Source of the DNA: a virus
Taxonomy: Duplodnaviria > Caudoviricetes
IMG/VR virus record: IMGVR_UViG_3300030376_003153
Location: 1-39,675 of that record
DNA: 39,675 nucleotides
Strand: one strand, 5' to 3'
The notes beneath the pieces were generated by a model. That model ran no database searches. It was not told where the DNA came from and worked only from the letters and a program-made list of their open reading frames with translations. Position 1 is the stretch's first letter. Each line of letters starts with the position of its first letter. This document shows positions 876 to 37,788 of this stretch, piece after piece. The translations under genes were made by a program, and so were the position numbers.

Positions 876-881
876 AGAGGT

Positions 882-16545: not shown

Positions 16546-16579
16546 AGGTTACCAACTACTTCTTGCTTTACGGTCACAC
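16546..16579 (-). promoter_or_regulatory. Putative phage-specific late promoter (tail fibres)
   Basis: GTGTGACCGTAA, 16 nt, TAACCT. Confidence 0.75.
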
Positions 16580-16580
16580 C

Positions 16581-19500
16581 TTATAAACCTCTGCTTGCTT
16601 TACTAGCTTTACCAGTTAATGTTCCTCTTATCAAATCCATTGCATTTTCTGGATTAACTTTACCTGTTCCTACATCTATTAAATAACCACCTGATTTACC
16701 AAGAGGTGTAATTGGTATGCCAGAAAATATAGTTACTAAAGCACTAATATCTCTTACTTGTCTACCGCTTATACCTTTGCCTTCTATTAAATCGAAAGGT
16801 AATTTAAACGCAGTTTGTGTTCCTCTAACTAACAATTCTATAGATGGACTAGAAACTAAATTGTCATTCCAAGGTTTGTCATCAAATTGATTTATTGGAA
16901 TAAGTAATGCATTACCAAAAATAGGAACAAATGCTTTTTTATAATCTACTAAATCTCCTAGTACTGCTTTCATCATGTCATCTACTATCATGCCGTCATC
17001 TTCTTCATCTAAAAATAAATTACCTGCAAATGTTCTACCTATCATCCCTGCTATTACTGCCGGCATCATAATGCTGTAAAAATACATATAAAATAATTGT
17101 TCTGTTCCTTTTCCCTTATTATTAAATCCAATATCTCTAGTTATTTTCTGGTATTGATTGTTATTTAAATTAGCTATGTTATTAAAATAACCAGTAAATT
17201 GACTTATAGATTGAATAATAGGATTCCAGTTTTGAAAACCTGCTCTATCTTCTGGCAATAAACTATCTTGTGTCATACGCACAGCAGCGTCAGCTTGTTT
17301 AATTGCTTCAGTTTGTACTTCTATATCACTCATAGAAGAAGGTAATTTTTGATGGGTTTGATTGTAAACTGCCATCCATACAACAGCATCAACTTGATTT
17401 TGAAATGTTTGCTGTAAAAAATATGCGTGTTTTGTAGACCAATCTTTAAATTTTTCAAAATTATTTGGATTAACTATCAATTCTTGTAATCTGCTTTGTA
17501 TATCAAAAATTTGATTTAGTTGACGGTCTGCCATAAATGGTGACAAATCTGCAATTGCTTGCATTGTTCCTTCTCTATCAGCTATGTAATTCTGCAAAGA
17601 ACTTAACATTTGTACAGGTGTTGCTTTTAACATTGCAGGGAATACACCTGTGTATTGTTCAATAGCATTTTTAAGATTAAAGAACATAACTGCCATTCCA
17701 CCTCTTTTTCTAGTTGCGTTTAATGCTGTATCAAATTCCGCACCCATACCACTAGGAGCAAAAGTTTTTTGTGAAACAACTGTTTGCAGCCAAGGTTTAA
17801 TTAATGTATCTGTTTTTTGTGGATTTAATATTTCTAATTTTTTCTGAAATTCTTTATCATTAACTATTTTTAAAACATCTTTAACAACTGGTTGAACATA
17901 AGAATAACGCAATGTGTCATCTATATGTTTAGTCATATAGCCTAAGTTTAATGATAATGGTTGTGCAAAATTCTCATTACGTTCTTTTGTCATGCCATGT
18001 TCTACCATAGGCAATGACATTCTAAATTCTCTTTGTAGCTGTTCAACAGTAATTTCTACTTCTTGCTTTGTCATATTAGGATCACCTTTTGCAGGTACAT
18101 ATCCCCCTCTAAATGTTCCAAACTCATTAACAATAGGTGTAGGCTCTACAACTTTGAAATAGAAACCATTTAATTCCCTATGTGCATTCTGCAATAGTGG
18201 CAACATTTTTTGATTTAAATCCCATACTGCTTGCAAGAAAACATAATCACTTTGAGTTAATATTCCTTCGTCTTTCATCCGTTGTACAAAATTATCCCAA
18301 TGTGTTGTATTTAACGTGCCGTCTTCATTTAACGAACCCCACCCTCTACCTAATAATAATTTTTTTAAATTACTTTTATTGCCTGTATGTAACATCGCTC
18401 CTAACAGTTCTACCTTACCTAAACCGTCAGAGTCTGTTCCAAATGTATATGCAGCAGAATCTTCAGAAACTTCATCAAATTCGTAAGCAGTTATTTTACT
18501 TTCTTTATTACCAAAATCTAAGGCAGCAACTAAATCTGTATATTCTTTAGTAATAACAACTTGTTGTTGTCTATATTCATTTAATGCTTGTTTTATTGGG
18601 TAATAAAGAGTGTTATAAAATGCTCCAAGTTTACCGCCTTTTAACTGTAATACTGCTGATCCTACGCCTTTAACAACTTCATCAGCACCATCCATTAGGT
18701 CTGTAAAACTTTCCATACGTTGCAAATTAGATCCTAGTGTTAAAACAAATTTATGCAATTTAGATTTAAAAGTAGTTTTAACAGCTTCTCTTTTACCCGG
18801 TGGATTAGCTAGACGTTCTCTTGCTTGTGGACTTCTAGAGATATTTTTATCTAAGATTTTTAACAATGGATCACGAGCTTCTTCAAATGCTATAAGTTTA
18901 TTGCCTTGTCTTATTTGCTCATCTCGTAAAGATTGATGCCATAAGAAATCTAATGTTTCTTCTAAGTTTAAAAATTCATCACTTGTTAAAGATAACAAAT
19001 CAGTTTGCATCCGTTTGCGACCTGCTTTTTCAATAATTGGCTGTAGCTGTTCGTAAGTAAATGGATTGTATTCTTTTATTTGGTTCATTTTTTCTGTAAC
19101 ATTTATTTTCTTTTTACCAATACCAAAACTAAATAAAATAGCTCTACCTGCATCTATTAAAAACATATTACGTTTGTATTTTTTATTTTTATCTCTAAAT
19201 TTTTGATCTGTTTGTAAAAACTTATCAAACTTTTTAATAGCTTTATCGTAATTTTTATGTATTTCAATAGCTTCTTTTGCCAATTGATTAGCTATAAGTT
19301 GTGCTCGTTTAGCTTCTACAGCCCTTTGTTCATCACCTTTACTTATTGCATCTTCTGCTTCTTTCCTTGCATTTTCTTCATCACGAGTATATTCACTTGG
19401 TTTTATGTCTTGTAATTTTCTTTTTGCCAAAATATCTAACGCAGCTTCCCTTGCAGCAGCTACTTGTAGACGTACAGGTTGTGTGGACTTTGATAAAAAC

Positions 19501-22500
19501 TTTAATTCTAGTGATATAAATCTAGATCTTGCTTCGTTATGTAATGCTTCTAATACACCTAATTCAATTAATCTTTCATCTACTAACTCAGAATATTCTT
19601 CTAGCATACGTTGCTCAGTTCTTTCTTTAATAACATCTTCTATTTTTCTTGCACTTAATATTGCATCTATCATGTCTAAACCATTTGCATATTCAAACAA
19701 ATCTGCAACGTCTTCTACGCTTTGCCCTTCTTTAGCCACCATACCTGATTTACCATAACCAAGTTGTTGCATTTCATATTTCATGTCATGAAATGGTACA
19801 AGTTGTTTTACGCTTTCAATAGATAATTTGTATCCAGACTGTACTTTTACTATTTCGCCTTTGTCGTTTAAAGTTTCACCACGTTTTAAATAATTTATTA
19901 ATCTATAAACTTTTTCGTTTTGTACTTCTTGTGTTACTTCTGCTTCTACTTTCTTATATGTTTTTTTATGTTTTTTCTGTAAATTAGCCATATATTTACT
20001 GCGTGCATTATCTAACCACTCAAGTTGTTTCATACTTTTTTGATTTAATATTTCTTTTGATTCGTCAAAAGCTTCTTGCAATCTTGCCTGATAATCTGTC
20101 CATTCTGCATCTGTCATACCGCTTTGTTCTTTTGTTAAAAACATTGCTTTCATTCCATAAATTTCGTTAGCCAATAATATGTTTTGATTAGTAGCAAGCA
20201 TACGATCCATTACACTTCTTACTTCATCTGTAAGTACTGGTAAATCTCTGCCAAATAATTTTTTATATTGTGTGTTTAATTCATATTTAATATTTTCATA
20301 TACCTCTCCAAGGTATCTCACAAAGTCTCTAAAAATTCTACGCATTCTAGAATCGTTATTTGGTACTTTGCCTTCATGCAAATAAATTTCAAAGTTTAAT
20401 GCAAAAGCTTCATGGTATTGTTTTTTCTCTTCTATAGTAAATTTGCTCCATGTTTCAATATCTTCAACACCCCAGAAATCTAATAAAACATTAAAGTCAT
20501 TTACCATGTCAGCAGGTGCATCTGGTTGCATAACAATGTCTTCCATAACTGACAACATATAATGTCCAGTTTCATGGAAAAATGTCGATATATCTGATTC
20601 TTGGTTTATTAAAGTTGTAAATGATTTTGGATCAAATCTACCTTTTGGTCCTTTGCTATCTCTACGTTGTTCTAAAAATTCTCCTACATTTACTTGAATA
20701 GATCCTCTAGGCTCTCCAACTGAGAGTCTGTAATCTCTTCGTCCGTTAGGGAATTCATCATCGAGACTAAGTCTAGAAGGTTCGACCCGGATGGCAACTG
20801 CTGTATCGCCATAGCCAGTATCTGTGATAGCTCTGGTGGTAACGTAGACATCAGGTTCTCCAGAACTTCTGAGTTGACCTGTAGCCCTAATTTCTTCTGC
20901 TGCTCTTCTGTTGGTGTGATGGTAGACGGTAACTGTTCCGTCTGGGTTAAGGGGAAGTCCTGTGCCTTCGTCAATGTTTGTGTCTTCTCTTCCTTGTTGT
21001 TGGAAAGTATCAGTTCCTCGTATAGTTCCAGATTCTCCAACATCTCGTTGTGTGTCTCCTGATTGCTCCTCGGATTGTATTGATAACTCATTGTCTATCT
21101 CCTGTAATGTAGATTGAATTTCTGCTTCAGATATACCCATTGTAGCAACTAAAGACGCAGCAGCATTAGCATAATCAGGTGCTGCATTATCTTCGTAACC
21201 TGTTTCTACTACTGCTTCTTTTAATTTTGCAGTATCATATAATTTCTTTTCTGGATACCACATCAATGCTTGTAAATCAGCCATTGTTAAATCTGGATTA
21301 TTTTGTTGCAATATTGGTAACACTTGTCCAAAAATCTTTTCTATAAATCTTCTTTCTGGCGGCCCTTTAGGTTGCTCTTTCTGACCATCCAAATACCCTG
21401 CTAATGAGTTACCTGCTTTGCGTATTTCATCTCCGATACTTATTCTTTTTTCACCTTTTATAGGTTTACCTTTAATGTTTGTTATTGTGTCTGCAACATC
21501 ATTATTTGAATCAACTAGTGATATTGCTGCCATTAATTTCACATTAGCAGGTATAGATGTTCTAGTTTCGATTCTTTTTGCAACTGCATCTAAATCACCT
21601 AAAGTAAGTTTTCTTCCTAATATTTTTTCAAATTCTTTTTTTTGTTCTTTAGTTAAAGCCTTTATATATTGTTTTAATTGCTCACGTTTATTTTTAGCTT
21701 GTTTTGTATAGTCAGTAACTAGCGTACCTGTCATTCGACCCCATGTACGCATAGCCCATCTATCTAAAGTTAATTGTTCATAGTTCCCATATAGATTTGC
21801 AAAAAACCCATTACCAATTTTTGGCCCTATAACAGCAGCACCATATACTATTTCTGTTTTTCCAAAATCTTTTATCTCTACTCCTGTATATGTTTCAACT
21901 TCTTTTACTGTATGTGTTGTACTCATAAATTTTTCAACGTCTTCTACCCCATTTTTTTCAATTAATTCATTTATTAATCTAAAACTTTTTGTCATTGCAC
22001 GACCTGCTTTACCCTGTCCAAAAGGTACTGGGAACTTACTATTTTCTTTCCAATAGCTGTACACTTCTTGCGTAAGTTGAAAATTTGTATTTACGTCTAT
22101 GCCGTTAGATGTAGTTGCTAAAGCCCAAGTAAAAGCAAAATTTGATGCTGTATCAGTAAGTAATTCTGGATAAACTTTTGCTAATAATGCTTTGGCTTTT
22201 GTGACTTTTTCGTTGTACCAACCTATTGCGTTTGGGTTTTCTATTAATGCGTATTGTGCATCTGCTAATAATGTTTGTACTAAATATTTTTCTGTCTCAA
22301 CACTAGCATCTGATAAATTAACACCTGCTTTTTTAGCAGCAGCTAGTATACGTTTTTGTATTTCAACTTTAAAATCTTTAATAGTTTTAAAAGGCTTGCT
22401 ACTTGCAAAATCAAAATTTTCTGTAATTTTTGCTAATTGAAAAATTTCTTGTGATACTGGTTTTCCTTGGTCTTGTTGCTTGCCTTGTTGCTCAAATGTT

Positions 22501-25190
22501 TGTAATTGTTGCTCGTATATATTATCTACTTCTCTAGACCAACTACCTTTGTTGTTTACTGACTTAACTGCATTAGGATCAAATACAACAACTTCCGTAA
22601 TTTCGTTTGTTGTAGGATTAATCATTAATACACCATCGTATCCTTCACTTATTAATTTGTTTTTATAATTATTTCTTGCAGCAATACCGCCTTCTTTTAT
22701 TCGTTGTTTTGTTTTGCGATCTGTTTCTCTATATGGGTTTTCTAAACGCACATATAAAGGCATAACTACACGATCTGCTTCTTTTGCATTTGTTCGTACA
22801 CTTTTTTGCCTTGCATATCTTTTTGCATGACCTTCATTTAATGTTAGATATATTCCTTTACCTAAAAATCCCATATCATATTTATTGGGATTATCTAAAT
22901 CAAAACGATCAAAACTAGCTGTAGTGCCGTGGTATAAAACTTGAGGTGTACCATCAGCATTTTTCATTTTTGATTTACCAAACCAATTTTTAAACAATGG
23001 TGACTCAGTTTTTATTGATCCGTTCTGATTAAAAAAGTCATCGCCAAAATTTTTTGGTTTACCTTCAAATTGAACACTATATAAATATTTATTTAAAAAT
23101 TCCTTAATTGACATATTAGATCTTTTTGCAAAAGTCAAAGCAAAAGTTAAAGGTAAATTTGCTAGTGCAGTTGCAGATTCTTTTGTGTATTGACCTGTAG
23201 CAATAAGTTGTTCTTTTATTTGTTTTTTATATGCTCTTGCTTCTCTTTGTGATTCTTTAAATAATTCCGTTCCTTTTTTTATATCAGTTAGTGCTTTATC
23301 TAGCATTTCATCTTTAATCTTATAAACTTCTTGAAATTCTGCTTGACTATATGTTTCTGCACCAAGACGTATATGTGGCCTTAATATATTATGAAACTCT
23401 GTACCTGCAACATTTGCTAAATAATCACCAGTTGAAATTTTTATATTTTTACCAACAAGACCTTCTTCATCTGCTTTTTTTAATTGGTCACTAAGTTCTG
23501 GTGAAAACAATTCTAATTGTTCCATTGATATATCATTGTCATCTAGTTGTTGTTGAAATGTTTTTGCGTCTATATAAAAATCTTTAACACCATTACGTTC
23601 ACCAACTAAATCCATATATCTTTGCCATAAATTTTTATTTCTTTTTAAAGTCTTGTCGTTTTGTGTGATATCAAGCATTTTGTCAATATATTCTTGATCG
23701 CTATTTGATTGTCTTAAATTATTTGCAGTACGATAATAGCCACCACCAGATGTTAAAACACCAAATGTCAACATACCTTTTGTGGTATCCCAAAATACGT
23801 TTCGTATTCTGTCCCATCCTTCTTCTGCTGATACGTTTGTAGTTTCATAAGTAGCCATTTCAGCAGCTATGTTGTAACCAATAATATTTATAAGTTCTTG
23901 AGTAACTTCAGTTGCATTTTCTGTTAAAACATTTTGTGCTATGTCAGCAAAAATACTTCTTGATACAGAATATTTTGTAAGTTGTTCAAATTTATCGCTA
24001 AGACTTACATTAGTTGCTCTCCTTAATAATCTTTTATTAAACATATTCCATGCAGGTTGTAATTTTTTATCTAAGCCCGATCTACTTATAGAACCTGCAA
24101 GCCATTTACTAGTACCCATTCCTACGGCACTTTTTGATACAAGCCTACTACCTGCTCCAAATAAAAATGGCAATCCTATTCTTTCAACTGCACCTGCGAG
24201 TAATCCAACAACTTGTGCTTGTCGTGCAGCATCCTCATGATTTAATCCACCAACTTTTTGTATTGCATCCAAATAAGAATTACCGCCTTCAACCATATAT
24301 GAGTTCATAAACATATAGTTGTACGCAGCAGGTAATCCTGTTGTTGCACCAATTAATCCACCTACGACTGTACCTTTACCGGGAACAACACTACCTGCTA
24401 ATGCACCAATTTTTGCATTTATTTTTGAAGTAACTATTCCTGTTGTTGCAGCAGCAGGTAACGTCCTACCCCATTGACCAAAATAATATCCACCTGCTTC
24501 TAACCAACCAACACCATCTTCGTTATACAATCCAATTTTTTTATCAATTTCTTTTATTCTTGCTAACTTTTCTTCTCTTGATTCTTTTCCTCTAAATGCA
24601 CCAAAAATATCAGCAGCTATAAATTTTTTAATTCTATCGCCTTGATGGTATTCATTATTTTCATCACCTGTCATCAACTGATATCCTAATAATCCTCTTT
24701 CGTTTGATAACCAACCTTTATGTATACCTTGAGGTAAACCTTTAAGTTCATTTTTTACAAACCGTGGAATTGCTGTTAATGCCCTAGTCGTTGTGTAATA
24801 TTCTTGTAAATGTTCTATATTGTCATGTGCTAATGCAGCAAACTTAGGATCTTCTAATTGTTTTGCTAGTATTGGGTTTATTCTTGCAAAATTTTGATTT
24901 AATATATATTCTTCACGTTTTCTTTTCTTTATATATTCAAATGTTTCGTCATCATCTTTAAGATCAAAATCTTCTGGCAAATTAAATTGTTCTTTAAATC
25001 TTTGAATTTCACCTGCTTTATCACCATTAATTTCGCTGACAGCTTTTAAAGTTTGCCTAATGTTATCCCATTGCTTGTCCTGTTTATATTTTGCATATTC
25101 ACGAAAAAGACTATCACTATTTTCATTATTAAAATTGTTATTATCATCGTTGTTTTCTAAATCTTCGTATTTAATTAAATTAGAATTCAT
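16581..25190 (-). CDS. Large ejection (internal virion) polyvalent protein, 2869 aa
   Basis: Position equivalent to T7 gp16; ART-like YHGT and YHHT domains, a GPKIG..TLDRW domain and an HETGH zincin motif. Confidence 0.85.
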   Translation of the reverse strand: MNSNLIKYEDLENNDDNNNFNNENSDSLFREYAKYKQDKQWDNIRQTLKAVSEINGDKAGEIQRFKEQFNLPEDFDLKDDDETFEYIKKRKREEYILNQNFARINPILAKQLEDPKFAALAHDNIEHLQEYYTTTRALTAIPRFVKNELKGLPQGIHKGWLSNERGLLGYQLMTGDENNEYHQGDRIKKFIAADIFGAFRGKESREEKLARIKEIDKKIGLYNEDGVGWLEAGGYYFGQWGRTLPAAATTGIVTSKINAKIGALAGSVVPGKGTVVGGLIGATTGLPAAYNYMFMNSYMVEGGNSYLDAIQKVGGLNHEDAARQAQVVGLLAGAVERIGLPFLFGAGSRLVSKSAVGMGTSKWLAGSISRSGLDKKLQPAWNMFNKRLLRRATNVSLSDKFEQLTKYSVSRSIFADIAQNVLTENATEVTQELINIIGYNIAAEMATYETTNVSAEEGWDRIRNVFWDTTKGMLTFGVLTSGGGYYRTANNLRQSNSDQEYIDKMLDITQNDKTLKRNKNLWQRYMDLVGERNGVKDFYIDAKTFQQQLDDNDISMEQLELFSPELSDQLKKADEEGLVGKNIKISTGDYLANVAGTEFHNILRPHIRLGAETYSQAEFQEVYKIKDEMLDKALTDIKKGTELFKESQREARAYKKQIKEQLIATGQYTKESATALANLPLTFALTFAKRSNMSIKEFLNKYLYSVQFEGKPKNFGDDFFNQNGSIKTESPLFKNWFGKSKMKNADGTPQVLYHGTTASFDRFDLDNPNKYDMGFLGKGIYLTLNEGHAKRYARQKSVRTNAKEADRVVMPLYVRLENPYRETDRKTKQRIKEGGIAARNNYKNKLISEGYDGVLMINPTTNEITEVVVFDPNAVKSVNNKGSWSREVDNIYEQQLQTFEQQGKQQDQGKPVSQEIFQLAKITENFDFASSKPFKTIKDFKVEIQKRILAAAKKAGVNLSDASVETEKYLVQTLLADAQYALIENPNAIGWYNEKVTKAKALLAKVYPELLTDTASNFAFTWALATTSNGIDVNTNFQLTQEVYSYWKENSKFPVPFGQGKAGRAMTKSFRLINELIEKNGVEDVEKFMSTTHTVKEVETYTGVEIKDFGKTEIVYGAAVIGPKIGNGFFANLYGNYEQLTLDRWAMRTWGRMTGTLVTDYTKQAKNKREQLKQYIKALTKEQKKEFEKILGRKLTLGDLDAVAKRIETRTSIPANVKLMAAISLVDSNNDVADTITNIKGKPIKGEKRISIGDEIRKAGNSLAGYLDGQKEQPKGPPERRFIEKIFGQVLPILQQNNPDLTMADLQALMWYPEKKLYDTAKLKEAVVETGYEDNAAPDYANAAASLVATMGISEAEIQSTLQEIDNELSIQSEEQSGDTQRDVGESGTIRGTDTFQQQGREDTNIDEGTGLPLNPDGTVTVYHHTNRRAAEEIRATGQLRSSGEPDVYVTTRAITDTGYGDTAVAIRVEPSRLSLDDEFPNGRRDYRLSVGEPRGSIQVNVGEFLEQRRDSKGPKGRFDPKSFTTLINQESDISTFFHETGHYMLSVMEDIVMQPDAPADMVNDFNVLLDFWGVEDIETWSKFTIEEKKQYHEAFALNFEIYLHEGKVPNNDSRMRRIFRDFVRYLGEVYENIKYELNTQYKKLFGRDLPVLTDEVRSVMDRMLATNQNILLANEIYGMKAMFLTKEQSGMTDAEWTDYQARLQEAFDESKEILNQKSMKQLEWLDNARSKYMANLQKKHKKTYKKVEAEVTQEVQNEKVYRLINYLKRGETLNDKGEIVKVQSGYKLSIESVKQLVPFHDMKYEMQQLGYGKSGMVAKEGQSVEDVADLFEYANGLDMIDAILSARKIEDVIKERTEQRMLEEYSELVDERLIELGVLEALHNEARSRFISLELKFLSKSTQPVRLQVAAAREAALDILAKRKLQDIKPSEYTRDEENARKEAEDAISKGDEQRAVEAKRAQLIANQLAKEAIEIHKNYDKAIKKFDKFLQTDQKFRDKNKKYKRNMFLIDAGRAILFSFGIGKKKINVTEKMNQIKEYNPFTYEQLQPIIEKAGRKRMQTDLLSLTSDEFLNLEETLDFLWHQSLRDEQIRQGNKLIAFEEARDPLLKILDKNISRSPQARERLANPPGKREAVKTTFKSKLHKFVLTLGSNLQRMESFTDLMDGADEVVKGVGSAVLQLKGGKLGAFYNTLYYPIKQALNEYRQQQVVITKEYTDLVAALDFGNKESKITAYEFDEVSEDSAAYTFGTDSDGLGKVELLGAMLHTGNKSNLKKLLLGRGWGSLNEDGTLNTTHWDNFVQRMKDEGILTQSDYVFLQAVWDLNQKMLPLLQNAHRELNGFYFKVVEPTPIVNEFGTFRGGYVPAKGDPNMTKQEVEITVEQLQREFRMSLPMVEHGMTKERNENFAQPLSLNLGYMTKHIDDTLRYSYVQPVVKDVLKIVNDKEFQKKLEILNPQKTDTLIKPWLQTVVSQKTFAPSGMGAEFDTALNATRKRGGMAVMFFNLKNAIEQYTGVFPAMLKATPVQMLSSLQNYIADREGTMQAIADLSPFMADRQLNQIFDIQSRLQELIVNPNNFEKFKDWSTKHAYFLQQTFQNQVDAVVWMAVYNQTHQKLPSSMSDIEVQTEAIKQADAAVRMTQDSLLPEDRAGFQNWNPIIQSISQFTGYFNNIANLNNNQYQKITRDIGFNNKGKGTEQLFYMYFYSIMMPAVIAGMIGRTFAGNLFLDEEDDGMIVDDMMKAVLGDLVDYKKAFVPIFGNALLIPINQFDDKPWNDNLVSSPSIELLVRGTQTAFKLPFDLIEGKGISGRQVRDISALVTIFSGIPITPLGKSGGYLIDVGTGKVNPENAMDLIRGTLTGKASKASRGL

Positions 25191-25193
25191 AAT

Positions 25194-27764
25194 TTATTTA
25201 CCTCTCATCATTTTTATTTTTATGTTTTTATCATAAGTATCTGTATTTTTTGGTCTACCTGCGTTTACATATTCCTCTGCTATGTTTTCACTAGTTAAAG
25301 CTTCACCACTTATAAACAATTGTCTTAAAATATGAGTTCGTACATCTTTTGGTATGTCATGTAACTTAACATCTTCATCACCTACCTTTACATATAGACG
25401 TTCAAAATCATCGCTACCTTCTTCATATTCATAAACTCGTTTTGTTGGATCACCACCAAATATTGATCTAATTTGATTTAGACCACCTCTGTCAAACAAA
25501 ACCTCATCAGTTAAAATTTCTTTAATTATTGATTTTCTTTTTTCATAAGTTATTTCTACACCATTTTCATAATAAAAATTTAAACGATCTCTATATTTAA
25601 ATTTTAATCTGCGATATTTTATACCTCCATCATCTACTAAGTCACTAAGATTATTTTCATCTAATGCTTCGTCAAAAATTGCTTTATCTACTGTAATGCC
25701 TTTGCTTTTTAGTTTGTTTGACTTGTTGCCATTTAATTGGTTTACATAATATTCATAGTCACCCGGATTTAATTTATGTCTAAAAGATTTTAATTTAGTC
25801 TCATCTTGCAATACTTCAACATCATTTGCTTCTATTTCATTTAAAGCATTTTCGTCTGATACTGCCGGTTGTCCACTTTTTAATATTTTTTGATCTTCTA
25901 AAGTAAAACTATTTATATCAATACCATTTGCTTTTAGCATTTTCCATCCATCTGGTTGTGCAAAAGCTATATCCTCTGCTTGTGTATATGCAGTATTGTA
26001 AAGTTCTGTTCTTTCTTTATCTGTTTGATTGTATTTAAATCTAAGTTCTGTTAATGCGTGTTCTTGTTTAACAGGATCTTTTATAGTATCTGTAATCTGT
26101 TTTTCATAATAAGTTAGCGGTGGTAAATTAGTTTTTGGATTTACTTTTACATATTCTTTGCCGTTAACGTATTCATAATCAATATCTTCATTAATAACAA
26201 GTAAATCATTAGTAATTGTATCTACATATGTATCTGCTTGATTTTTAACAATTTTTATTTCGTTTTCAAATTGTTTTATTTTATTTCTTTTTTCTAGATC
26301 TTTTTGTGAGTTTTTGTAATCTTTTGTACCCGGAAGTGGACCTAAACTTGAAAAAGATTTGTTATATAAATCTGGTGTATTTTTTAATTTTGTTATTTTT
26401 TTATTTAATTCTTGTACTTTTGGAGTATATGCAATTCCTATTTCAGCAAGAAATGCTTTATTAAAATTTTTCATTACTGTTTTATTTATTTCTACAAAAT
26501 AATTAGGATCATTGTTATATTTTTCTTTATCAATATTTGCGTCTTTAATTGCGTTTGTATACAACGAATCAGCCTTTTTTACACCTAATTTCTGTATTGC
26601 AAATAAATGTGCTGTTCTGTGTTGAGGAATAATTTGTTCATATTGAGGAGAATCTATGTTGTAATATTTTGATGTTGCTCTAATCTGTTGTAGCTGTTCT
26701 ACATTTTCACTTTTAGTTGCTTCTAAATTAGGCATTAAATCAGCATTAAATCCATCTATAATTGAAGATCCGTTGCCATTATCAATATTATTATTACTGT
26801 CTAGTTTTAATAAAAAATTTGCTGAATGTAAAAAATTATTGTCGTTTGAATTTCCTTCGTAACTTAAAACATTATCACATATTTTTGTAGCACAATATTC
26901 GTTTTCACTTTTTTGTAGCTCAGTTAAACCTTTAACTACTGTTTCACCATCAACAGTAACTATTTGTTGTCCTCCTATATTAAAACCTTTTGCGTGTTCT
27001 GCAAAATATTTTTTACCTAAAACTTCTTGATTATTATCTTTAAACCATTTAACGGCTTCATTATGTATTTCGCTTGTGTATTCTTTTACCATGTTTAAAT
27101 ATTGAGCACTAACTTCTCCTTTGCTTGGATCAATATTCCATCCTTTATCTATTGCAAATGATTGTATTTCTACAATGCCACTACCAAATGAAACCCAATG
27201 TTCACCACCCGGATCATTAAATCTAGTAATAGTTTTTATTGTATCTATTTGATGATTGTCAATTTTTGCTTCAGTTTCTTTTTCTTTAAAAATACGTTGT
27301 TGTGTTATAGAGTGTTGAGTTATTTTTGATTGGGCTGATTTAATACTTACTTGAGCCATATTTTCAAGCATATATTTAACAACGCCATTGCTTGATTGGT
27401 CAGTATATGTTTTTAAAATAGTTTCAAAATTTTTATTAGTGTCATCAAAAGCTGTTTTGTTTTTACCCTCTTCAGTTTGGCCGTTAGGTAGTACAGCATT
27501 AGCTCCCTTTAAGCTTGTATATTTATTAGTTTCAGCTTCTATATCTGCGTGTAAACCGTTATATAACTTTTTTGCTTCAGCATCATTTAATTCATTATCT
27601 AACTTCTGTATTATCTGCCCAGTTTGTTGTAATGCTTTAGCACTTCTTTCTATATCATCAGTAACAAAATCTTTCATTGGCTCTACAGAAGTAGCACCAA
27701 ATTGCACCTCAGAACCTGCTTGTTGTTCTACTTGTAAATTTTGTTGAAAAGGTACTCTTGCCAT
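25194..27764 (-). CDS. Internal virion (ejection) protein, T7 gp15 position
   Basis: MARVP N-terminus, LKGANA motif, helical composition, synteny. Confidence 0.7.
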   Translation of the reverse strand: MARVPFQQNLQVEQQAGSEVQFGATSVEPMKDFVTDDIERSAKALQQTGQIIQKLDNELNDAEAKKLYNGLHADIEAETNKYTSLKGANAVLPNGQTEEGKNKTAFDDTNKNFETILKTYTDQSSNGVVKYMLENMAQVSIKSAQSKITQHSITQQRIFKEKETEAKIDNHQIDTIKTITRFNDPGGEHWVSFGSGIVEIQSFAIDKGWNIDPSKGEVSAQYLNMVKEYTSEIHNEAVKWFKDNNQEVLGKKYFAEHAKGFNIGGQQIVTVDGETVVKGLTELQKSENEYCATKICDNVLSYEGNSNDNNFLHSANFLLKLDSNNNIDNGNGSSIIDGFNADLMPNLEATKSENVEQLQQIRATSKYYNIDSPQYEQIIPQHRTAHLFAIQKLGVKKADSLYTNAIKDANIDKEKYNNDPNYFVEINKTVMKNFNKAFLAEIGIAYTPKVQELNKKITKLKNTPDLYNKSFSSLGPLPGTKDYKNSQKDLEKRNKIKQFENEIKIVKNQADTYVDTITNDLLVINEDIDYEYVNGKEYVKVNPKTNLPPLTYYEKQITDTIKDPVKQEHALTELRFKYNQTDKERTELYNTAYTQAEDIAFAQPDGWKMLKANGIDINSFTLEDQKILKSGQPAVSDENALNEIEANDVEVLQDETKLKSFRHKLNPGDYEYYVNQLNGNKSNKLKSKGITVDKAIFDEALDENNLSDLVDDGGIKYRRLKFKYRDRLNFYYENGVEITYEKRKSIIKEILTDEVLFDRGGLNQIRSIFGGDPTKRVYEYEEGSDDFERLYVKVGDEDVKLHDIPKDVRTHILRQLFISGEALTSENIAEEYVNAGRPKNTDTYDKNIKIKMMRGK

Positions 27765-28368: not shown

Positions 28369-28402
28369 AGTATAACTCCATGGTATCTGTTTACGGTCAC
28401 AC
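28369..28402 (-). promoter_or_regulatory. Putative phage-specific late promoter (ejection proteins)
   Basis: GTGTGACCGTAA, 16 nt, TATACT. Confidence 0.8.
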
Positions 28403-30870: not shown

Positions 30871-30873
30871 AAA

Positions 30874-31542: not shown

Positions 31543-31552
31543 GTCATCTCCT

Positions 31553-31590
31553 AAAAAAAGAGGAGGTTAGCAGTATTACTACTAGCCCCC
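31553..31590 (-). terminator. Rho-independent terminator after the capsid gene cluster
   Basis: GGGGGCTAGTAGT-AAT-ACTGCTAACCTCC followed by TCTTTTTTT on the - strand. Confidence 0.8.
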
Positions 31591-31615
31591 AGTAAGAAAA
31601 TAAGAAAACTAATGC

Positions 31616-31924
31616 CTACTTATTAGCTGCTACTAGTTGACTAATTAAAGTGTCTTTAGTTTGTCTTCTATCTAGTTCAACACCAATAGAACGACCATAC
31701 ACTTCGAGTTCTGCTTTAGTCATTGATTCGTAATCAACGGATTGAGTAGTTGGCTGAACATCTTCTGACAATACGGCTGTGTTTGACGCCACAGGCAGAT
31801 CAGGTTCAGTTCCACCAACTAATTCAATATTACTATTGAACTCTCCATTGTATTCAAACTCTTCGTTAGCTTCTCTCATGGATTGACCAACAAAGCACTT
31901 AGTTTTAGCTCTATAAATAGGCAT
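31616..31924 (-). CDS. Small head-region protein with a C-terminal Rho-N/HeH-like domain
   Basis: YESMTKAELEVYGRSIGVELDRRQTKDTLISQL helix-extension-helix pattern. Confidence 0.7.
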   Translation of the reverse strand: MPIYRAKTKCFVGQSMREANEEFEYNGEFNSNIELVGGTEPDLPVASNTAVLSEDVQPTTQSVDYESMTKAELEVYGRSIGVELDRRQTKDTLISQLVAANK

Positions 31925-31936
31925 AGATTCTCCTTA

Positions 31937-32368
31937 TTAAGCTACGGTAAAGCCAGAAGCATAGTACTTCTGTCCGTCACCGATTGTTTCTACTACATCA
32001 GCAGTAACTTTACCTGCATTAAATGTACCTGCAACTGTGTATCTAGCACCTAAGTACCTTTTACCTTTACCTGCAATGTCTGGATTAATGCGTACTACTA
32101 CGTTTTTACCAACTGTAAGTGCTGCTGTAAGGATTGCATCGCTGCTTCCAATAACAGTAGGACTAGACAAGTTAGCATTTGCACTAGTTACAACTTCAAA
32201 CTTTACACTTGTACCGTTTGCTAATGCAGTGGTAACAGCAAAGTTCATGTATAACGAAGTACCTTCGCCTATATCTCTAGCTGTTCCTAGATCAATAGTG
32301 TCAGTAGAAAAAGCAGTTGTAGTAATTGCTTGATCTTCGCTCACTCGGAGCAGTTTGTCTGTAATCAT
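31937..32368 (-). CDS. Bbp16-like capsid cement protein
   Basis: MITD.LL..S..QAIT.TA.STD.IDLG..RDIGEG and RYL..RYTV motifs; follows the major capsid gene. Confidence 0.85.
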   Translation of the reverse strand: MITDKLLRVSEDQAITTTAFSTDTIDLGTARDIGEGTSLYMNFAVTTALANGTSVKFEVVTSANANLSSPTVIGSSDAILTAALTVGKNVVVRINPDIAGKGKRYLGARYTVAGTFNAGKVTADVVETIGDGQKYYASGFTVA

Positions 32369-32395
32369 TTTAGATCTCCTTTGTTAATAAAAAAG

Positions 32396-33415
32396 TTAAC
32401 TTACCGCAGATTCAGTGTTAAGCAACGCATCTACTCTTCTTAGAGGTACTCCAAGGAATGATAAGTAGCTTTGTGCTGATCCAAACTGTGATAAACCTTC
32501 TTGGATAGCTAATACAGATTGTGACTTGTCAAGTGCTGCAATAGATAATCCTGAGTGAACAGTTCTATTCATATAGAACGCTGCTCTTCCCATTGCCATA
32601 TTTGGAATTCTATACAATGCTCTAGCCATAAGCTTAATAAGAGCAGTAGATGCACTTGAAGCTTGTGTGTTAGAACCTGCTAATAGGTCAGAAATGTCAA
32701 TGTTACAAATACGAACAACGTATCTCCAATCTTTAACGACCAAACCGTTCTTCCACTGGTAACGAGTAGCAAAAGCTTGTAATCTTGTACCGTCACTGTT
32801 GTAAACAGTTTGCTCACCTAGATCTTCGTGTGTTAAACCTGCTTTAGATCCTTTAGGGAAAGGACAATAAACAGTATTATCACCCCAAACAACTAGATAT
32901 ACAGAAGCGTTATCAGAACCTGATCCACCTGCATTAAGAATGTTTACTGCGTTGTCAGCAGATAAATCACCATATCTTGGTGCAAGTCCTAAAAACTTCT
33001 TAGGATCTGTTCCGGGATTACCGTAGAACATTGTCTCTGCTTGAGTCTGGTTCATTGCTTCCAAGAACGCAGTATCTTCAGATAAACGGAACTGTGCAGT
33101 GTTACCATTTAACATTGCCAAGTCTTTGTCTACTTCAGAACGAGCTTCTAGGATTCCGCAAGCTTCGTCAATTTGTGCTGTTGTTGACTTGCTTGATGGA
33201 ATACCTTGGTTAAGTGCTCTCCAGTAAACACCGGGTAAACCAGTTCTAATAACAACACGTTCTCCAGTAGGTAAATTACCTTCTTTAAAAACGCAATCGT
33301 CTAAAATTTCGTTGCTTTGTGATAATAGTTCTGCAACAATTGGAACTCTACCGTCTGGGTCAGATCTTTTTGCCCAATCCGCTAGGGTTAAATTTGATGA
33401 TGAAAGTGTAGCCAT
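32396..33415 (-). CDS. Major capsid protein (BPP-1 Bbp17-like)
   Basis: TLAD.AKR.DP, E.L.Q.NEIL.D, RTGLP, F.GLAPRY and F.GVP.RR.DAL motifs. Confidence 0.93.
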   Translation of the reverse strand: MATLSSSNLTLADWAKRSDPDGRVPIVAELLSQSNEILDDCVFKEGNLPTGERVVIRTGLPGVYWRALNQGIPSSKSTTAQIDEACGILEARSEVDKDLAMLNGNTAQFRLSEDTAFLEAMNQTQAETMFYGNPGTDPKKFLGLAPRYGDLSADNAVNILNAGGSGSDNASVYLVVWGDNTVYCPFPKGSKAGLTHEDLGEQTVYNSDGTRLQAFATRYQWKNGLVVKDWRYVVRICNIDISDLLAGSNTQASSASTALIKLMARALYRIPNMAMGRAAFYMNRTVHSGLSIAALDKSQSVLAIQEGLSQFGSAQSYLSFLGVPLRRVDALLNTESAVS

Positions 33416-33426
33416 TTAATAACTCC

Positions 33427-34119
33427 TTACTTGTTTTGCTGATTAGAATACAGTGCGTTAGCTATGCCGTTAAAATCTTTTGGTACACCGCTTTTAGCAT
33501 TAGCACCTAAAGAATTACCAACATAACTGTCTTCACTAATTGCCTTACCTGCTCGGTACATAAACCGAATTACTTCGGGATGATTTCCCAAACCAGATTC
33601 TGACAGCAACTGTTTAAAAGGATCAGTACCAAATGCATTAAGGGCTGTTTTTGCAACTTCAAGATTAGTTTCAAAAGTTTCACCACCAAATTCTTCATCT
33701 GATTGTGATTCTGCTGCCCAATCTTGTCTTGCCTTTTCAACCTGTTGTGCTTGTCTTGCCTGTATTACAGGTGCGACTTTGTCTAAAACTTTTTGTGCAG
33801 CGTCTTGTGGCAGGTCAAGTTCTTTAGCGACTTCACCGAATGCAGTTAAGACTTCGGGGTCGAGTACTTCCGGTGCGTCAGCCACCTTATCGTTGAACTC
33901 GTATGTCTCAGGAGCACCTTCTTTGGTTTCCTGTTCGCTAGTTTCACTTTCAGCAGTGGATTCATCCGAATCTTGCTGATCTGCTACATTTTCAGCTTGT
34001 TGCTGTGTTTCTTCAGTAGTCGTAGTTTCAGCCGATTGCTCGGTTTGTGCTTCTCCTACTGGTTGCTGTGTGCTGCCTTCATTGGTTTGTTCGGCTTCCG
34101 TCATCAGCGTTTCTGACAT
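33427..34119 (-). CDS. Capsid scaffolding protein
   Basis: Acidic N-terminus, GAPE.YEF, D.EFGG and GLGNHPEVIR..YRAGKAISED motifs; precedes the capsid gene. Confidence 0.85.
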   Translation of the reverse strand: MSETLMTEAEQTNEGSTQQPVGEAQTEQSAETTTTEETQQQAENVADQQDSDESTAESETSEQETKEGAPETYEFNDKVADAPEVLDPEVLTAFGEVAKELDLPQDAAQKVLDKVAPVIQARQAQQVEKARQDWAAESQSDEEFGGETFETNLEVAKTALNAFGTDPFKQLLSESGLGNHPEVIRFMYRAGKAISEDSYVGNSLGANAKSGVPKDFNGIANALYSNQQNK

Positions 34120-34423
34120 TTTTTTGCTCCTTAATCATTGTCGGGTATAACTCTGGGCAGAGAGTGTGAATCAAGTTTAGTATTTGCAAACCATAGTTTC
34201 TGTTACCTTCGCTAAATGACATTGCCATTGCGTTAGTGTTAAACGATGATCGGAAAACACCTGCTTGCTCCAGAAGTCTCCAGATTAATCTGCGACCCCT
34301 CTTGCTGCTCATCAGCCATTTGATGTCCGACTCTTCATTTTGGCGGTCAATTCTTTCCTCAGACTTTTTATTGTCTTTGGATTTTTGTTGACTCTTGAGG
34401 TCGAGAGGATTGTATTCACTCAT
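34079..34423 (-). CDS. Bbp19-like head protein
   Basis: DIKWLMS..RGRR..WRLLE.AGVFR..F.EG.RN.GL..CPELY motifs. Confidence 0.85.
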   Translation of the reverse strand: MSEYNPLDLKSQQKSKDNKKSEERIDRQNEESDIKWLMSSKRGRRLIWRLLEQAGVFRSSFNTNAMAMSFSEGNRNYGLQILNLIHTLCPELYPTMIKEQKNVRNADDGSRTNQ

Positions 34424-34428
34424 GACTT

Positions 34429-34462
34429 AATATACCTAGCAATAACTGGGTTACGGTCACAC
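34429..34462 (-). promoter_or_regulatory. Putative phage-specific late promoter (scaffold/capsid operon)
   Basis: GTGTGACCGTAA, 16 nt, TATATT; ATG follows 5 nt later. Confidence 0.8.
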
Positions 34463-34463
34463 C

Positions 34464-34598
34464 TTATGCTTGACTTTGCCTAATAGCTTTATCTGTTGGT
34501 GCTCCCTTTGATCCTTTTTTACGCATTTTTTCACCAGAACCTTCTTTAATTCTTTTACGTTTTGCGTGAATGTTTGCCCACAATCCTTGGTTTTTCAT
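34464..34598 (-). CDS. Small basic protein, 44 aa (MKNQGLWANIHAKRKRIKEGSGEKMRKKGSKGAPT...)
   Basis: Translated by hand; GL[WY]ANIHAKRKR..GAPT motif recalled from many aquatic phages. Confidence 0.85.
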   Translation of the reverse strand: MKNQGLWANIHAKRKRIKEGSGEKMRKKGSKGAPTDKAIRQSQA

Positions 34599-34600
34599 AA

Positions 34601-34744
34601 TTAAAACATTGAAGGGTAAAGTTTTTTTAGTTTTTCTAATTCTTTTAATTGTGCGTCAGATGCCATACCGCCTTCTTTCATAGCTTCTAATGTTGCTGCT
34701 TTTCTTTTTATTTTTGCAGGAATAATATTTTTTGCGTCAGCCAT
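34601..34744 (-). CDS. Small protein, 47 aa (MADAKNIIP...LKKLYPSMF)
   Basis: GGAGG RBS; TAATG overlap. Confidence 0.75.
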   Translation of the reverse strand: MADAKNIIPAKIKRKAATLEAMKEGGMASDAQLKELEKLKKLYPSMF

Positions 34745-34896
34745 TACTTGTTACCTCCATAAAGCTTTTCAGCAAATTGTTCTAATTTAGATTTTTTCTT
34801 ATTTTTATTTTTATTTGCTTCTTTTGCGTTATGTGCTTCTATCATTTGTTTGTAACGCATTTTTGCACTGGGCGATAGATTGTGTGAACCTTCCAT
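34744..34896 (-). CDS. Small basic protein, 50 aa (MEGSHNLSP...FAEKLYGGNK)
   Basis: AGGAG RBS; coupled to the downstream ORF. Confidence 0.75.
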   Translation of the reverse strand: MEGSHNLSPSAKMRYKQMIEAHNAKEANKNKNKKKSKLEQFAEKLYGGNK

Positions 34897-34905
34897 AATA
34901 AACTC

Positions 34906-35268
34906 CTATGCTAAATAAGTTGGGCTTTTAGCAACAGGTGTTGCTTTTGGTGCAGGTTTAGGCTGTGTTTCGTACAAACCTTTAGCCTGATCACCACTCT
35001 TATCAAAAGGTTCTATACCCATTGCACATATTTGTAGCTCTACATTCTGTTCAACACCATCCTTTTCTTTACTTTCTCTAACAGTTTTAACATAAGTAAT
35101 AGCCTTAATCATCATCTCGCTACCAGCTTCTGGTAATTTTTCGATGCCTAACTTTTCTAGTTCTTCCCTACCAAGCGATATACACAAACCGTAGCTATAC
35201 ATTGGCTCTTCGTACATTTCATTGCTATCAATGGGTTGTGGATCTTTTTTTAAGTCAATTAAGTTCAT
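34906..35268 (-). CDS. Head accessory (capsid staple-type) protein
   Basis: Y.YGLCISL..EELEKLGI..LP..G and ELQI..M motifs; follows the portal gene. Confidence 0.65.
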   Translation of the reverse strand: MNLIDLKKDPQPIDSNEMYEEPMYSYGLCISLGREELEKLGIEKLPEAGSEMMIKAITYVKTVRESKEKDGVEQNVELQICAMGIEPFDKSGDQAKGLYETQPKPAPKATPVAKSPTYLA

Positions 35269-36948
35269 TTATACCTCCAATGGTGATGGTGAATTGTAAC
35301 CACTAAATTGATTCATCATGTCCATCATAGATGGATCACCAGTTTTTGAATCATTTAATTTAACTGCATTATCTACAGCACGTTGTTCTGCTTCTGCTTT
35401 TGCCATTGCTTGTTGTTGTGCTGCTCTGTCTTGACGTATTCTTGCTACTCGTTCACCTCCAATTATTAATTTAGGATCTACGCCTAACATATCAGCATAT
35501 CCATCTGCCCATGCATCAGAATCAAATTTATCTAATACATCAGGTTTCATTTGTGCAATCATACCCATGCTATTTACATACCTATCTACACTGTTTGTAC
35601 CTATAGCACGTTGTGCTTGTGCCAACATAGATACAAATTCTACGTTTAATTCCATGCCTTGCATCTCTTCTGGAGCAGGTGGTACTAATCCGGCTTCTAC
35701 CATTCTGTTAAACGTATTATCAATTAACGGATCTAATAGCTCATTATGCAATCTTTCCAATACAGGACCTAACATAAGCAGTTTTTCTTCGTGACGTTCT
35801 GCCACTTCTGTTGCGGTCATCCTTGTATCAGTAGCATTTGCCAACATAAGGAACAAATCAGCATAAAAACTACCGTTAATACGCTGCCTTACGTCTTGTA
35901 TATCTGCTAATAAATGATTTAAATTAAGGTTTACGTTGAATGCTGTCTCAATTTTGCCTTGTTGACCATCAATAAACGTAACGCCACCCGGTAAACTGTC
36001 CACATCTCTGTTTTTCATGTAGCTAGGTACTTGTAATGGTGGCTTTGTTTGGTAATCAATGCCTTGTGCCTTGCGTAATTGTTCATGTTGGAGCTGTTTT
36101 ACGTCACCTAATGCTTCCATTCCCGGTGAATTACCATAAATATCGCCACCAGATATGCCCCATCTAGGTATAACAGCCGGAAATTCTTTATATCCACTTT
36201 CTCGTAGCACATCTTCGCCATCACCACCTATTTCAAAGTAACAAGACTTGTATGCCATGTTCATATTGTCCTTCTTTTTAAAGTCACGCTCCCTATCATC
36301 TCTTGGCTCTATTGCATGAACTAAAGTAATCCACTGATCTAATGAACCCCTGTCGTACAAATTCTTAACGGACGTTGAACATTTCTTATATCCAAACTCT
36401 CTTACTACTTCTCCTACTGTTTTTTGAAATTCTCTGTACAAAGTGTTTACTCTGCCTTGATAATCAGTAGCTATTGCATATTCTCCAATAGTTACAGGGT
36501 AATGATGTATAGCTGTTTTAGGATCAGGAAGGACAATAGAACCTGCTGTGCCAAATGCTCCTAATTCTTCATAAATACTGTGTAATGTTCGGTATGTATT
36601 AGATTTTTGAAACACTAATTGCATACGTTCTGTTACGTCATTTAGCCATAACTTAACAGGTGCATATCTATTTAACTCTGGGTCAGCCGTTCCAAGTCTA
36701 AACCAAGGTCTTGCAGGGGATGTCGCACCTGCCATCATACCTGCACCTAATGTTCTTAACGCTCTTGTACCAGTATTGTCATATATCGAGTTATGTCGTC
36801 TATGTCCTTTGTTTCTATCTTGTTGAAAATAACGTCCATTTCTTGGTAACAAGTATGTTGTCACTTCTTGCCAATGTGACCACCATGTAGCTCTTTCAGA
36901 TCTAAGGTGACCCCATCTTGTTAACAGGTCAGCACGTTTTGTTTTCAT
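35269..36948 (-). CDS. Portal / head-tail connector (Bbp21/T7 gp8 family)
   Basis: TSPARPWF, YGNSPGM.ALGD and MTATEV.ER..EKL..LGPVLERL motifs. Confidence 0.95.
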   Translation of the reverse strand: MKTKRADLLTRWGHLRSERATWWSHWQEVTTYLLPRNGRYFQQDRNKGHRRHNSIYDNTGTRALRTLGAGMMAGATSPARPWFRLGTADPELNRYAPVKLWLNDVTERMQLVFQKSNTYRTLHSIYEELGAFGTAGSIVLPDPKTAIHHYPVTIGEYAIATDYQGRVNTLYREFQKTVGEVVREFGYKKCSTSVKNLYDRGSLDQWITLVHAIEPRDDRERDFKKKDNMNMAYKSCYFEIGGDGEDVLRESGYKEFPAVIPRWGISGGDIYGNSPGMEALGDVKQLQHEQLRKAQGIDYQTKPPLQVPSYMKNRDVDSLPGGVTFIDGQQGKIETAFNVNLNLNHLLADIQDVRQRINGSFYADLFLMLANATDTRMTATEVAERHEEKLLMLGPVLERLHNELLDPLIDNTFNRMVEAGLVPPAPEEMQGMELNVEFVSMLAQAQRAIGTNSVDRYVNSMGMIAQMKPDVLDKFDSDAWADGYADMLGVDPKLIIGGERVARIRQDRAAQQQAMAKAEAEQRAVDNAVKLNDSKTGDPSMMDMMNQFSGYNSPSPLEV

Positions 36949-36951
36949 TGA

Positions 36952-37275
36952 TTATCCACCAAGTAATGTGTTACCACCAAGATTTAACTGGCTAGAATCT
37001 ACGCCTTGTACACCAGTAAGTAATGTTCCGGCAGGTCCGGCCATTGCTGCCTGTTCTTCTTTCTTTGTAATAGCACTAACGTCAGCCCTTCTTCTATTAG
37101 CTTTATTAAATTCAATATCAGCACGGTCAGACGCTTCTTTTGCCCTGTCTCTAGCGTCTTGATTAGCTTGTCGTTGCAATGCTAACTGTTTCTTCTGTTG
37201 TTTTTTTTGTTGGTTACTTGCATATATCTGCGATCCAACAGTAGCTGCTCCTACAATAACGGCTGATACTACCAT
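36952..37275 (-). CDS. Small virion protein upstream of the portal
   Basis: Hydrophobic N-terminus; TLLTG..GV..LGG.TLLGG C-terminus typical of the pre-portal gene in these podoviruses. Confidence 0.75.
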   Translation of the reverse strand: MVVSAVIVGAATVGSQIYASNQQKKQQKKQLALQRQANQDARDRAKEASDRADIEFNKANRRRADVSAITKKEEQAAMAGPAGTLLTGVQGVDSSQLNLGGNTLLGG

Positions 37276-37278
37276 TGT

Positions 37279-37788
37279 TTAAATCTCCTTAGAATACATG
37301 ATTTCTTGTACACCATATTTTAGCTTTGGTAGCAACTTTGCTAAAGCGGTGTTTTCTTTAGCGTGCCATAACATCAGTTTACAGCCTTCAGATCTTGCAT
37401 GATCCTCTGTAACCCTTAACAATCGCAAACCTAATCGTCCACCTCTGAATTCTTTTTTGACAAACAAAACGTCATTCTGAGTAACTCTTAGATCAGCATA
37501 ATGAAAATGATGCATGATGATATTCATAGAATAACCAATACAGACATCGCCTTGCATTGCTAGATAAATAAACAAGAATCCGTTCTTGTCTACCGATTCA
37601 TACATCGGCCAGTTTGGTTTTAGCTTCATTACCTGTTTGTTGCGAGCAATCTCTTCGTAATGCTCTTCAAACAATGGTTCGGCTAATACCTTAAATTCAT
37701 CTAACGTGCAGAGTCTAATTTCTGTTTTAGGTACTCTACTTTCGTTTACACTAGCTGTACTATCAGCAGTTACGGTCACACTAGTCAT
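37279..37788 (-). CDS. GNAT-family acetyltransferase-like protein
   Basis: Acetyl-CoA motif LFVKKEFRGGRLGLRLL; HFHY..NDV; start uncertain. Confidence 0.8.
   Translation of the reverse strand: MTSVTVTADSTASVNESRVPKTEIRLCTLDEFKVLAEPLFEEHYEEIARNKQVMKLKPNWPMYESVDKNGFLFIYLAMQGDVCIGYSMNIIMHHFHYADLRVTQNDVLFVKKEFRGGRLGLRLLRVTEDHARSEGCKLMLWHAKENTALAKLLPKLKYGVQEIMYSKEI
37748..37781 (-). promoter_or_regulatory. Putative phage-specific late promoter (portal operon)
   Basis: GTGTGACCGTAA, 16 nt, TAGTGT. Confidence 0.65.

Follow-up and report, generated by a model that had tools for sequence, protein, structure and literature searches.

Repeated, probable late promoters of a BPP-1-like podovirus and a Bbp27-family helix-turn-helix protein as their probable activator

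The virus record IMGVR_UViG_3300030376_003153 (39,675 nucleotides (nt); the whole record was analysed and is called the window here) carries four copies of a 12-nt repeat at the heads of its late gene blocks. Comparison with related phages indicates that these repeats are probably late promoters for the host sigma70 RNA polymerase, switched on by a helix-turn-helix (HTH) protein of the Bbp27 family whose gene would lie before terS, outside the contig. We favour this protein because the repeats keep a fixed geometry, because its gene fills the corresponding gap in the relative L163, because gene and repeat are present together and lost together, and because one protein residue covaries with one base of the repeat.

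Judged by matches to Bbp16, Bbp19, the GP7 capsid, the head-tail connector, tail tube, YqaJ/RecT and DnaC, the window phage is a BPP-1/epsilon15-like podovirus. It is a marine phage, and its host is probably Prochlorococcus. The best host hint is an accessory block of small genes (7500-10700) that resembles the Prochlorococcus phages MED4-184 and P-HS2, and also MED4-117 (siphoviruses) and a marine single-cell virus; its likeness to MED4-184 and P-HS2 makes a cyanobacterial host likely.

Four repeats with a fixed, promoter-like geometry

A first-pass annotation, made from the letters of the window alone, had reported an exact 12-mer at four late-operon starts, and the repeat is as described: GTGTGACCGTAA occurs exactly four times, always on the − strand (16568-16579, 28391-28402, 34451-34462 and 37770-37781), and no copy with one or two mismatches was found elsewhere in the window. 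Markov models of order 0-5 predict 0.0015-0.010 copies, and this sequence, taken with its reverse complement, is the sole 12-mer with four copies in the window. Exactly 16 nt separate each copy from TAACCT, TATACT, TATATT or TAGTGT, and the copies precede the tail-fibre (16518), internal-virion/ejection (28345), Bbp19-scaffold-capsid-tail (34423) and GNAT/gp14-like/portal blocks, in agreement with that annotation. Because the copy at 37770 sits within the N-terminal codons of the longest GNAT frame (37279-37788), its transcript would begin within the frame and mainly serve the genes below GNAT. The reported lack of a −35 box also holds, since no −35 consensus was found at the four sites and the three that fell in scan range were not listed as canonical promoters; the early genes of the window, unlike the late sites, have ordinary TTGACA/TTGATT promoters with a 17-nt spacer. 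The site was rightly called non-palindromic: neither GTGTGACCGTAA nor GGTGCCCGT is a palindrome, and the variant of the Caulobacter phage JessA alone is near-palindromic. The four predicted promoters are laid out as follows.

37770..37781, − strand: box 1, a likely activator site that falls within the opening codons of the long GNAT frame; precedes the gp14-like gene and the portal gene
37748..37753, − strand: promoter 1 −10, TAGTGT; predicted +1 at about 37742
34451..34462, − strand: box 2, ahead of the bbp19, scaffold/protease, major capsid and tail tube genes
34429..34434, − strand: promoter 2 −10, TATATT; bbp19 ATG at 34423 after 5 nt, leaderless mRNA predicted
28391..28402, − strand: box 3, overlapping the tail tube B stop codon, ahead of the internal virion/ejection genes
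28369..28374, − strand: promoter 3 −10, TATACT; predicted +1 at about 28363
16568..16579, − strand: box 4, just past the giant ejection gene, ahead of the tail fibre genes
16546..16551, − strand: promoter 4 −10, TAACCT; predicted +1 at about 16540

The motif scan proposed in the first-pass annotation showed that box and 16-nt geometry are kept at the same four gene boundaries in many relatives. In a pattern scan of IMG/VR, about 430 stretches carried the exact box-16-TAnnnT arrangement, mostly at these boundaries. Because that scan presupposed the spacer, we rely on a motif-independent repeat with 80 loci picked by portal homology only. These loci held 171 sites with zero or one mismatch, all on the portal (late) strand, and TAnnnT stood at spacer 16 in 120 of 120 distinct contexts, whereas each of the other spacers between 10 and 23 gave 0-4 of 120. 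Anchoring on the bbp19 start codon gave box-16-TATATT-5-ATG in all 74 marine-clade loci. Over 113 sites, T-12, A-11 and T-7 of the −10 were invariant (113/113); the sixth base past the −10 was A in 106 and is likely the +1, which is how the starts listed above were predicted. The spacer sequence is free, with G at −14 in 85 of the 113 sites and T at −15 in 7. In many lineages the start codon lies 5-7 nt past the −10, so that many late transcripts would be leaderless.

This geometry makes it almost negligibly probable that the repeats are packaging, RNA-processing or recombination sites. Such roles would suit a gene that adjoins terS and resembles the DNA-binding tails of homing endonucleases, as the HTH gene does, but not a hexamer with three invariant bases at a fixed distance, a single orientation and start codons placed just past the hexamer in many lineages. 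Repression by the same HTH protein, acting on extended −10 promoters that are active alone and are kept off until late, is improbable. The box overlaps the polymerase footprint, G at −14 is frequent, and the covariation described below would fit binding of either sign; against this, a −35 consensus is lacking at all four sites, T at −15 is rare, and a repressor would not need an exact 16-nt spacer in every lineage. A lytic-arm gene beside terS is, moreover, a known late-activator position, as with RinA (PMC3152322).

Several other origins of the repeat were rejected. Coding constraint was ruled out as the cause of box 1, since three copies are non-coding and the 12-mer falls in AspH, GNAT or intergenic DNA across relatives; a CRP or NtcA site was ruled out because the second half-site is absent and TGTGA is not kept in relatives; and N4-like spacer hairpins were dropped solely because the spacer columns vary freely. 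A host regulator or alternative sigma factor is a highly improbable reader of the box. The window-clade box does contain the CRP-like half site TGTGA, and the box scans were run without any host genome; yet TGTGA is not conserved, the box family extends over phages of Bordetella, Limnohabitans, Caulobacter and probable cyanobacteria, and the box varies together with a residue of the phage protein and has decayed where the gene for that protein is lost.

Metatranscriptome contigs from four runs, found with this stretch, are unstranded and cannot show starts, and they were not used as support. Their coverage of the capsid block (31.5-34.2 kb) greatly exceeds that of the portal side, and two of the pieces listed stop at 34389 and 34411, close to the start predicted at 34423.

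A Bbp27-like gene expected beyond the contig end

The window has no terminal overlap and is incomplete by about 700 nt. Its relative L163, 99.9% identical over 14,404 nt, continues for 735 nt past the window end and into the window's first 35 bases, and this gap contains the end of AspH, terS (PF20901) and an HTH gene of 95 amino acids (aa) directly upstream of terS, the position typical of RinA/ArpU/Ltr-type activators.

1..35, − strand: junction to the missing ~700 nt; in L163 a gap of about 10 nt separates these 35 nt from the downstream start codon of P0001, the 95-aa Bbp27-like HTH gene, with terS next after it; the HTH gene is outside the window

Within this incomplete record, profile searches of the 49 open reading frames (ORFs) gave no match to RNA polymerase, sigma or Q, as the first-pass annotation had claimed. 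That annotation had considered an ordinary sigma or activator gene outside the window; the likely activator gene does lie there, and it belongs to none of the ordinary sigma, Q, Mor or Ogr types, being an unannotated gene for a Bbp27-like HTH.

The L163 protein is homologous to BPP-1 Bbp27, JessA gp3 and DC33 gene 11, all unannotated or mislabelled. Only 13 phage records match the L163 gene; the family comprises 366 clusters at 50% identity (E < 1e-10). Searches of Pfam, NCBIfam and PHROG profiles returned no family above cut-off. The predicted structure (pLDDT 95) combines a three-helix HTH and an N/C-terminal beta ribbon. After two family members, its nearest BFVD folds are the DNA-binding tails of HNH/GIY-YIG homing endonucleases, and these matches are weak (E 0.006-0.1, TM 0.4-0.5). 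No PDB fold matched at E 1e-3, and a PDB sequence search gave nothing below E 0.05; the best VIA-align Z of 6.3 (Tc3, IS21, terS, resolvase, Myb and GcrA-type three-helix HTH) reflects a fold too common to inform, and the ESM Atlas matches are unnamed viral clusters. RefSeq labels Bbp27 'endonuclease'; the family shows no nuclease Pfam match and no HNH or GIY-YIG catalytic domain, which suggests that the label is wrong.

The family also fits none of the established classes of transcription factor that were searched. Its proteins (76-110 aa) consist of the HTH only, without sigma regions 2 and 4 in one polypeptide, and TIGR02937 matched across the HTH in one of five members at 16.7 bits. PF08765 (Mor/C) matched one of eight proteins (E 0.055, 13.9 bits against a cut-off of 24.9), RinA, ArpU and Ltr profiles gave no NCBIfam or Pfam match at E 0.1-1, and a PHROG 'late transcriptional activator' matched only at E 0.01-0.02, in 1-2 of 12 members. 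As to sigma appropriation of the AsiA/MotA type, in which the activator contacts or displaces sigma region 4, a complex was predicted between L332, a family member from a prophage, and region 4 of sigma70 encoded in that genome; the score was 0.00 with an uncertain partner fold, a result that weighs neither for nor against such contact.

The gene and the box occur together. All six named phages with the HTH gene have three or four boxes, whereas none of nine phages with the same structural module and no HTH gene has any; in the latter set, which includes phiSG1 (49,963 of 52,162 nt covered), the best stray profile match reached 15.5 bits. Four copies of GGT(A/G)CCCGTA(A/T), followed by 16 nt and TAnnnT, stand at orthologous sites in each of DC33, zth2-2 and two Manatee Spring phages; BPP-1 has three boxes and a fourth with AAAACT before terS; and JessA has four copies of GGTGCGCAT(A/G)A with a −10 mostly without the −7T, which alphaproteobacterial promoters likewise mostly lack. 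A box also stands between the HTH gene and terS in JessA (L162, 2258-2269) and BPP-1 (L245, ~26284-26295), so that in these two phages, in contrast to the window clade, terS likely shares this control. Of the non-structural genes among 30 queries, the HTH gene alone occurs in every box-bearing genome (13 of 13) while missing from the box-poor genomes G011 and G012 described below.

The first-pass annotation had proposed that host RNA polymerase is redirected by a phage activator or remodeller. The fixed geometry, the host-type −10 and the lack of RNA polymerase, sigma or Q matches do give these sites the look of phage-activator-dependent promoters, but the candidates it named fall away: 149..562 is in 0 of the 13 complete or near-complete genomes that bear boxes (three of these are marine and share the window's 12-mer), 1240..1401 in 1 of the 13, and the replication-operon ORFs are missing from BPP-1, JessA and G016-G019.

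Three short rearranged BPP-1-like elements in betaproteobacterial/Stutzerimonas genomes (L327, L329 and L331) carry the HTH gene among internal-virion genes, some with boxes; these elements are possibly satellites or decayed prophages.

Joint loss, residue-base covariation and a possible mechanism

Because co-occurrence is confounded by descent, we examined losses. A new set of 76 portal-selected loci included 26 with 5.5 kb or more of sequence upstream of the portal gene; the HTH gene was in 23 of these and absent from 3. Five fragmentary HTH-less records (24-48% complete) were not counted as losses, and the complete genomes G011 and G012 were used, whose portals are 71% identical to that of the window and nested among HTH-bearing phages. 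Neither a search that did detect its positive control nor a further, sensitive search found the HTH gene in either genome. G011 has no box and G012 has one, and terS persists in both. Over 18 loci of their clade the bbp19 box is intact in 7 and decayed in 8, and the arrangement is lost in 3, against 74 of 74 intact in the marine clade; the box that follows terL is in none of the 18. The HTH-less phages (L426, 7017-7262; G011, G012 and L370) have a different gene of 81-91 aa before terS, with no NCBIfam match, that may be a replacement regulator, and the tail-fibre upstream regions of G011 and G012 share another conserved stretch.

Genomes with divergent HTH proteins have boxes of their own at the same sites: G016 has four copies of GGTGCGCGTGA, G017 five of GTGTACGT and G018 three of GGTATGTCT. 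Across 42 hand-picked related representatives (43 were tried and L343 was dropped) with boxes assigned by eye, Asp at position 68 of the recognition helix accompanies G at box position 7 in 7/7 against 0/35, a Matthews correlation coefficient (MCC) of 1.0. The best control columns reached 0.73 in portal (552 columns), 0.68 in terS (129), 0.68 in Bbp19 (103) and 0.80 in capsid (334). A separate Bbp19 alignment proved too diverse to serve in a locus scan. The portal tree shows four changes of the trait, one of them separating the close sisters G016 and G017, and in G021 and G023 the box was read first and Asp68 was found afterwards in both proteins. Asp on cytosine and Lys on guanine are common HTH contacts. 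A divergent HTH subfamily with an extended N-terminus (L344-L354), also encoded before terS, goes with a box (AAGG)TAA(C/G)TTGCA placed 10 nt before the −10; these boxes precede terS-side genes and bbp19 and share (G/A/T)TAA at −32..−29 with the main box. Separately, the box GTGCGTTG is similar to that of G023.

These losses and columns bear on the idea that another phage product, such as the Cro-like protein (855..1100), terS, the ADP-ribosyltransferase (ART) domain of the ejection protein or the ORFs of the first-pass annotation, reads the box or remodels polymerase while the HTH gene merely travels along. We consider this unlikely. terS has an HTH of its own, an ART-PolyVal domain is present and T4 Alt modifies polymerase, and G012 keeps one box without the HTH gene; however, terS is retained in G011 and G012 despite box loss and has no covarying column, Cro-like and ART matches are missing from the box-bearing BPP-1, G016, G017 and G019, and 149..562 is in none of the 13 genomes.

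Other observations weigh against activation by the Bbp27-like protein. The weightiest are the seven loci of the HTH-less clade with an intact bbp19 box; as some of them share their spacer with HTH-bearing sister phages, the sequences suggest relics or recombination. L163 diverges from the window past the junction (88.7% over 71 nt), and the window's own HTH allele is taken from L163. Marine phages that share the identical 12-mer differ widely in the first half of the recognition helix. A de novo scan found no three-copy box in G019 or G020, one box being seen in G019. Besides the hand-picking and by-eye assignment of its set, the covariation is tempered by L211, which has Gln68 with C; by Glu/Arg73, which covaries too (0.92), so that part of the signal may be an internal charge swap; and by box position 6, which is A in the window clade and mostly C elsewhere and whose best HTH MCC of 0.63 is beaten by 31 portal columns. 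RNA contigs also span late promoters, one crossing promoter 2 and one extending into box 1.

If the Bbp27-like protein is the activator, it would be made with terS from the early/middle (lytic) arm and would bind the asymmetric box as a monomer, with the conserved core at about −38 to −31, where a −35 hexamer would otherwise stand. The central part of the box would be read by the recognition helix, with Lys68 contacting the G opposite C7 and Asp68 the C opposite G7. The bound protein would hold polymerase in place of the missing contact between sigma region 4 and a −35, the invariant 16-nt spacer implying direct contact between the two, and sigma region 2 would then melt the host-type −10; several of the resulting transcripts would be leaderless. 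A more far-reaching scheme, which we regard as possible and rather doubtful, is that a monomeric substitute for sigma region 4, with a Lys/Asp68 code for C/G, arose by domestication of a homing endonuclease's DNA-binding tail, that it occupies the −35 position and gives the phage control over promoter choice, and that it forms a small set of orthogonal activators serving as the widespread late switch of BPP-1-like podoviruses in oceans, lakes and prophages.

Known systems, neighbouring genes and meaning

The closest counterparts are other phage late activators. ArpU and Ltr are relatives of RinA among them. RinA of Gram-positive phages is reported to be a small activator that is needed for late genes and acts at the terS end of the late region, and its allelic variants recognise their own promoter (PMC3152322). 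The HTH gene likewise lies before terS; RinA acts on one promoter upstream of terS, unlike the 3-5 short boxes spread through the late genes here. The hosts here are Gram-negative, unlike those of RinA phages, and there is no RinA-family match. Phage Mu C/Mor works with host sigma70 polymerase at several −35-less late promoters, from a site beside or over −35, as the system proposed here would do; Mor/C proteins, however, bind dyad sites as dimers through an N-terminal dimerisation domain, whereas the present box is asymmetric. For P1 Lpa and T4 MotA, the −35 gives way to an asymmetric site, near −22 or −30, whose distance from a sigma70 −10 is fixed, a likeness that extends to the present box. 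That box lies at −40..−29, unlike theirs, and no sequence or fold match to these proteins and no SspA- or AsiA-type co-factor was found.

The HNH/GIY-YIG homing-endonuclease tails share with the family a G-x-x-H-x-x-A-K-L motif followed by a three-helix HTH, whereas the proteins here stand alone: they lack a nuclease domain, carry an additional N/C-terminal beta ribbon and keep a conserved gene position ahead of terS. BPP-1 Bbp27, JessA gp3 and DC33 gene 11 agree with the inferred window system in protein family, box family and gene boundaries. Promoters of Autographiviridae-type single-subunit RNA polymerases differ, the window having no polymerase match in its 49 ORFs, a free spacer and no contiguous conserved promoter of ~23 bp. 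Some related-module phages without Bbp27 have other repeated upstream motifs: ACCT-N3-A/GGTAAT with CATAT(G/A)TGGTT in phiV10 (L243, before genes 6, 25 and 27) and AACGCAC-N-AT-N-CTGCG in BcepC6B (L244, before gp4 and gp18). The epsilon15 record annotates repressor sites at similar places.

The genes next to the promoters are these.

37279..37788, − strand: GNAT acetyltransferase frame overlapping box 1
35269..36948, − strand: portal (head-tail connector), PF12236
34079..34423, − strand: bbp19-like gene, first of the capsid block, PF25181
32396..33415, − strand: major capsid protein of epsilon15/BPP-1 type, PF20911
27764..28345, − strand: internal virion protein, first of the ejection block, phrog_418
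12865..16518, − strand: tail fibre, first gene past box 4

The terL-AspH block (37834-39675) is inverted relative to the portal gene in the window and in 18 of 74 marine relatives showing terL, a polymorphic inversion; a TATAAT at 37795-37800 on the + strand, back to back with box 1, could drive terL. The ART-PolyVal domain occupies residues 745-883 of the 2869-aa ejection protein (16581-25190, − strand), is patchy in relatives and is not tied to the box; by analogy with T4 Alt it could modify a host protein at entry. The Cro-like protein at 855-1100 has a carph-isopro domain (NF046037) and is kept in DnaC-type relatives only.

The literature searched holds no description of the box or of Bbp27 function; the 2004 BPP-1 genome paper, which could have noted the repeat, was outside its coverage, and the word 'promoter' is absent from those parts of the DC33 and Jessavirus papers that the term search reached (PMC12195039, PMC11053796). 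Activator-dependent late promoters are of a known kind; the Bbp27 family and its box are likely undescribed. BPP-1-like podoviruses include BPP-1 itself, the model for diversity-generating retroelements (DGR), as well as Caulobacter JessA, Limnohabitans DC33 and abundant uncultured marine and freshwater phages; they encode no RNA polymerase, and the literature searched gives no account of how their late genes are switched on. The present comparison names the promoters and a likely activator, and its one-residue specificity prediction can be tested in cultured phages. If the prediction is true, an activator of 80-95 aa whose specificity varies in nature would provide a compact means of gene control in synthetic systems.

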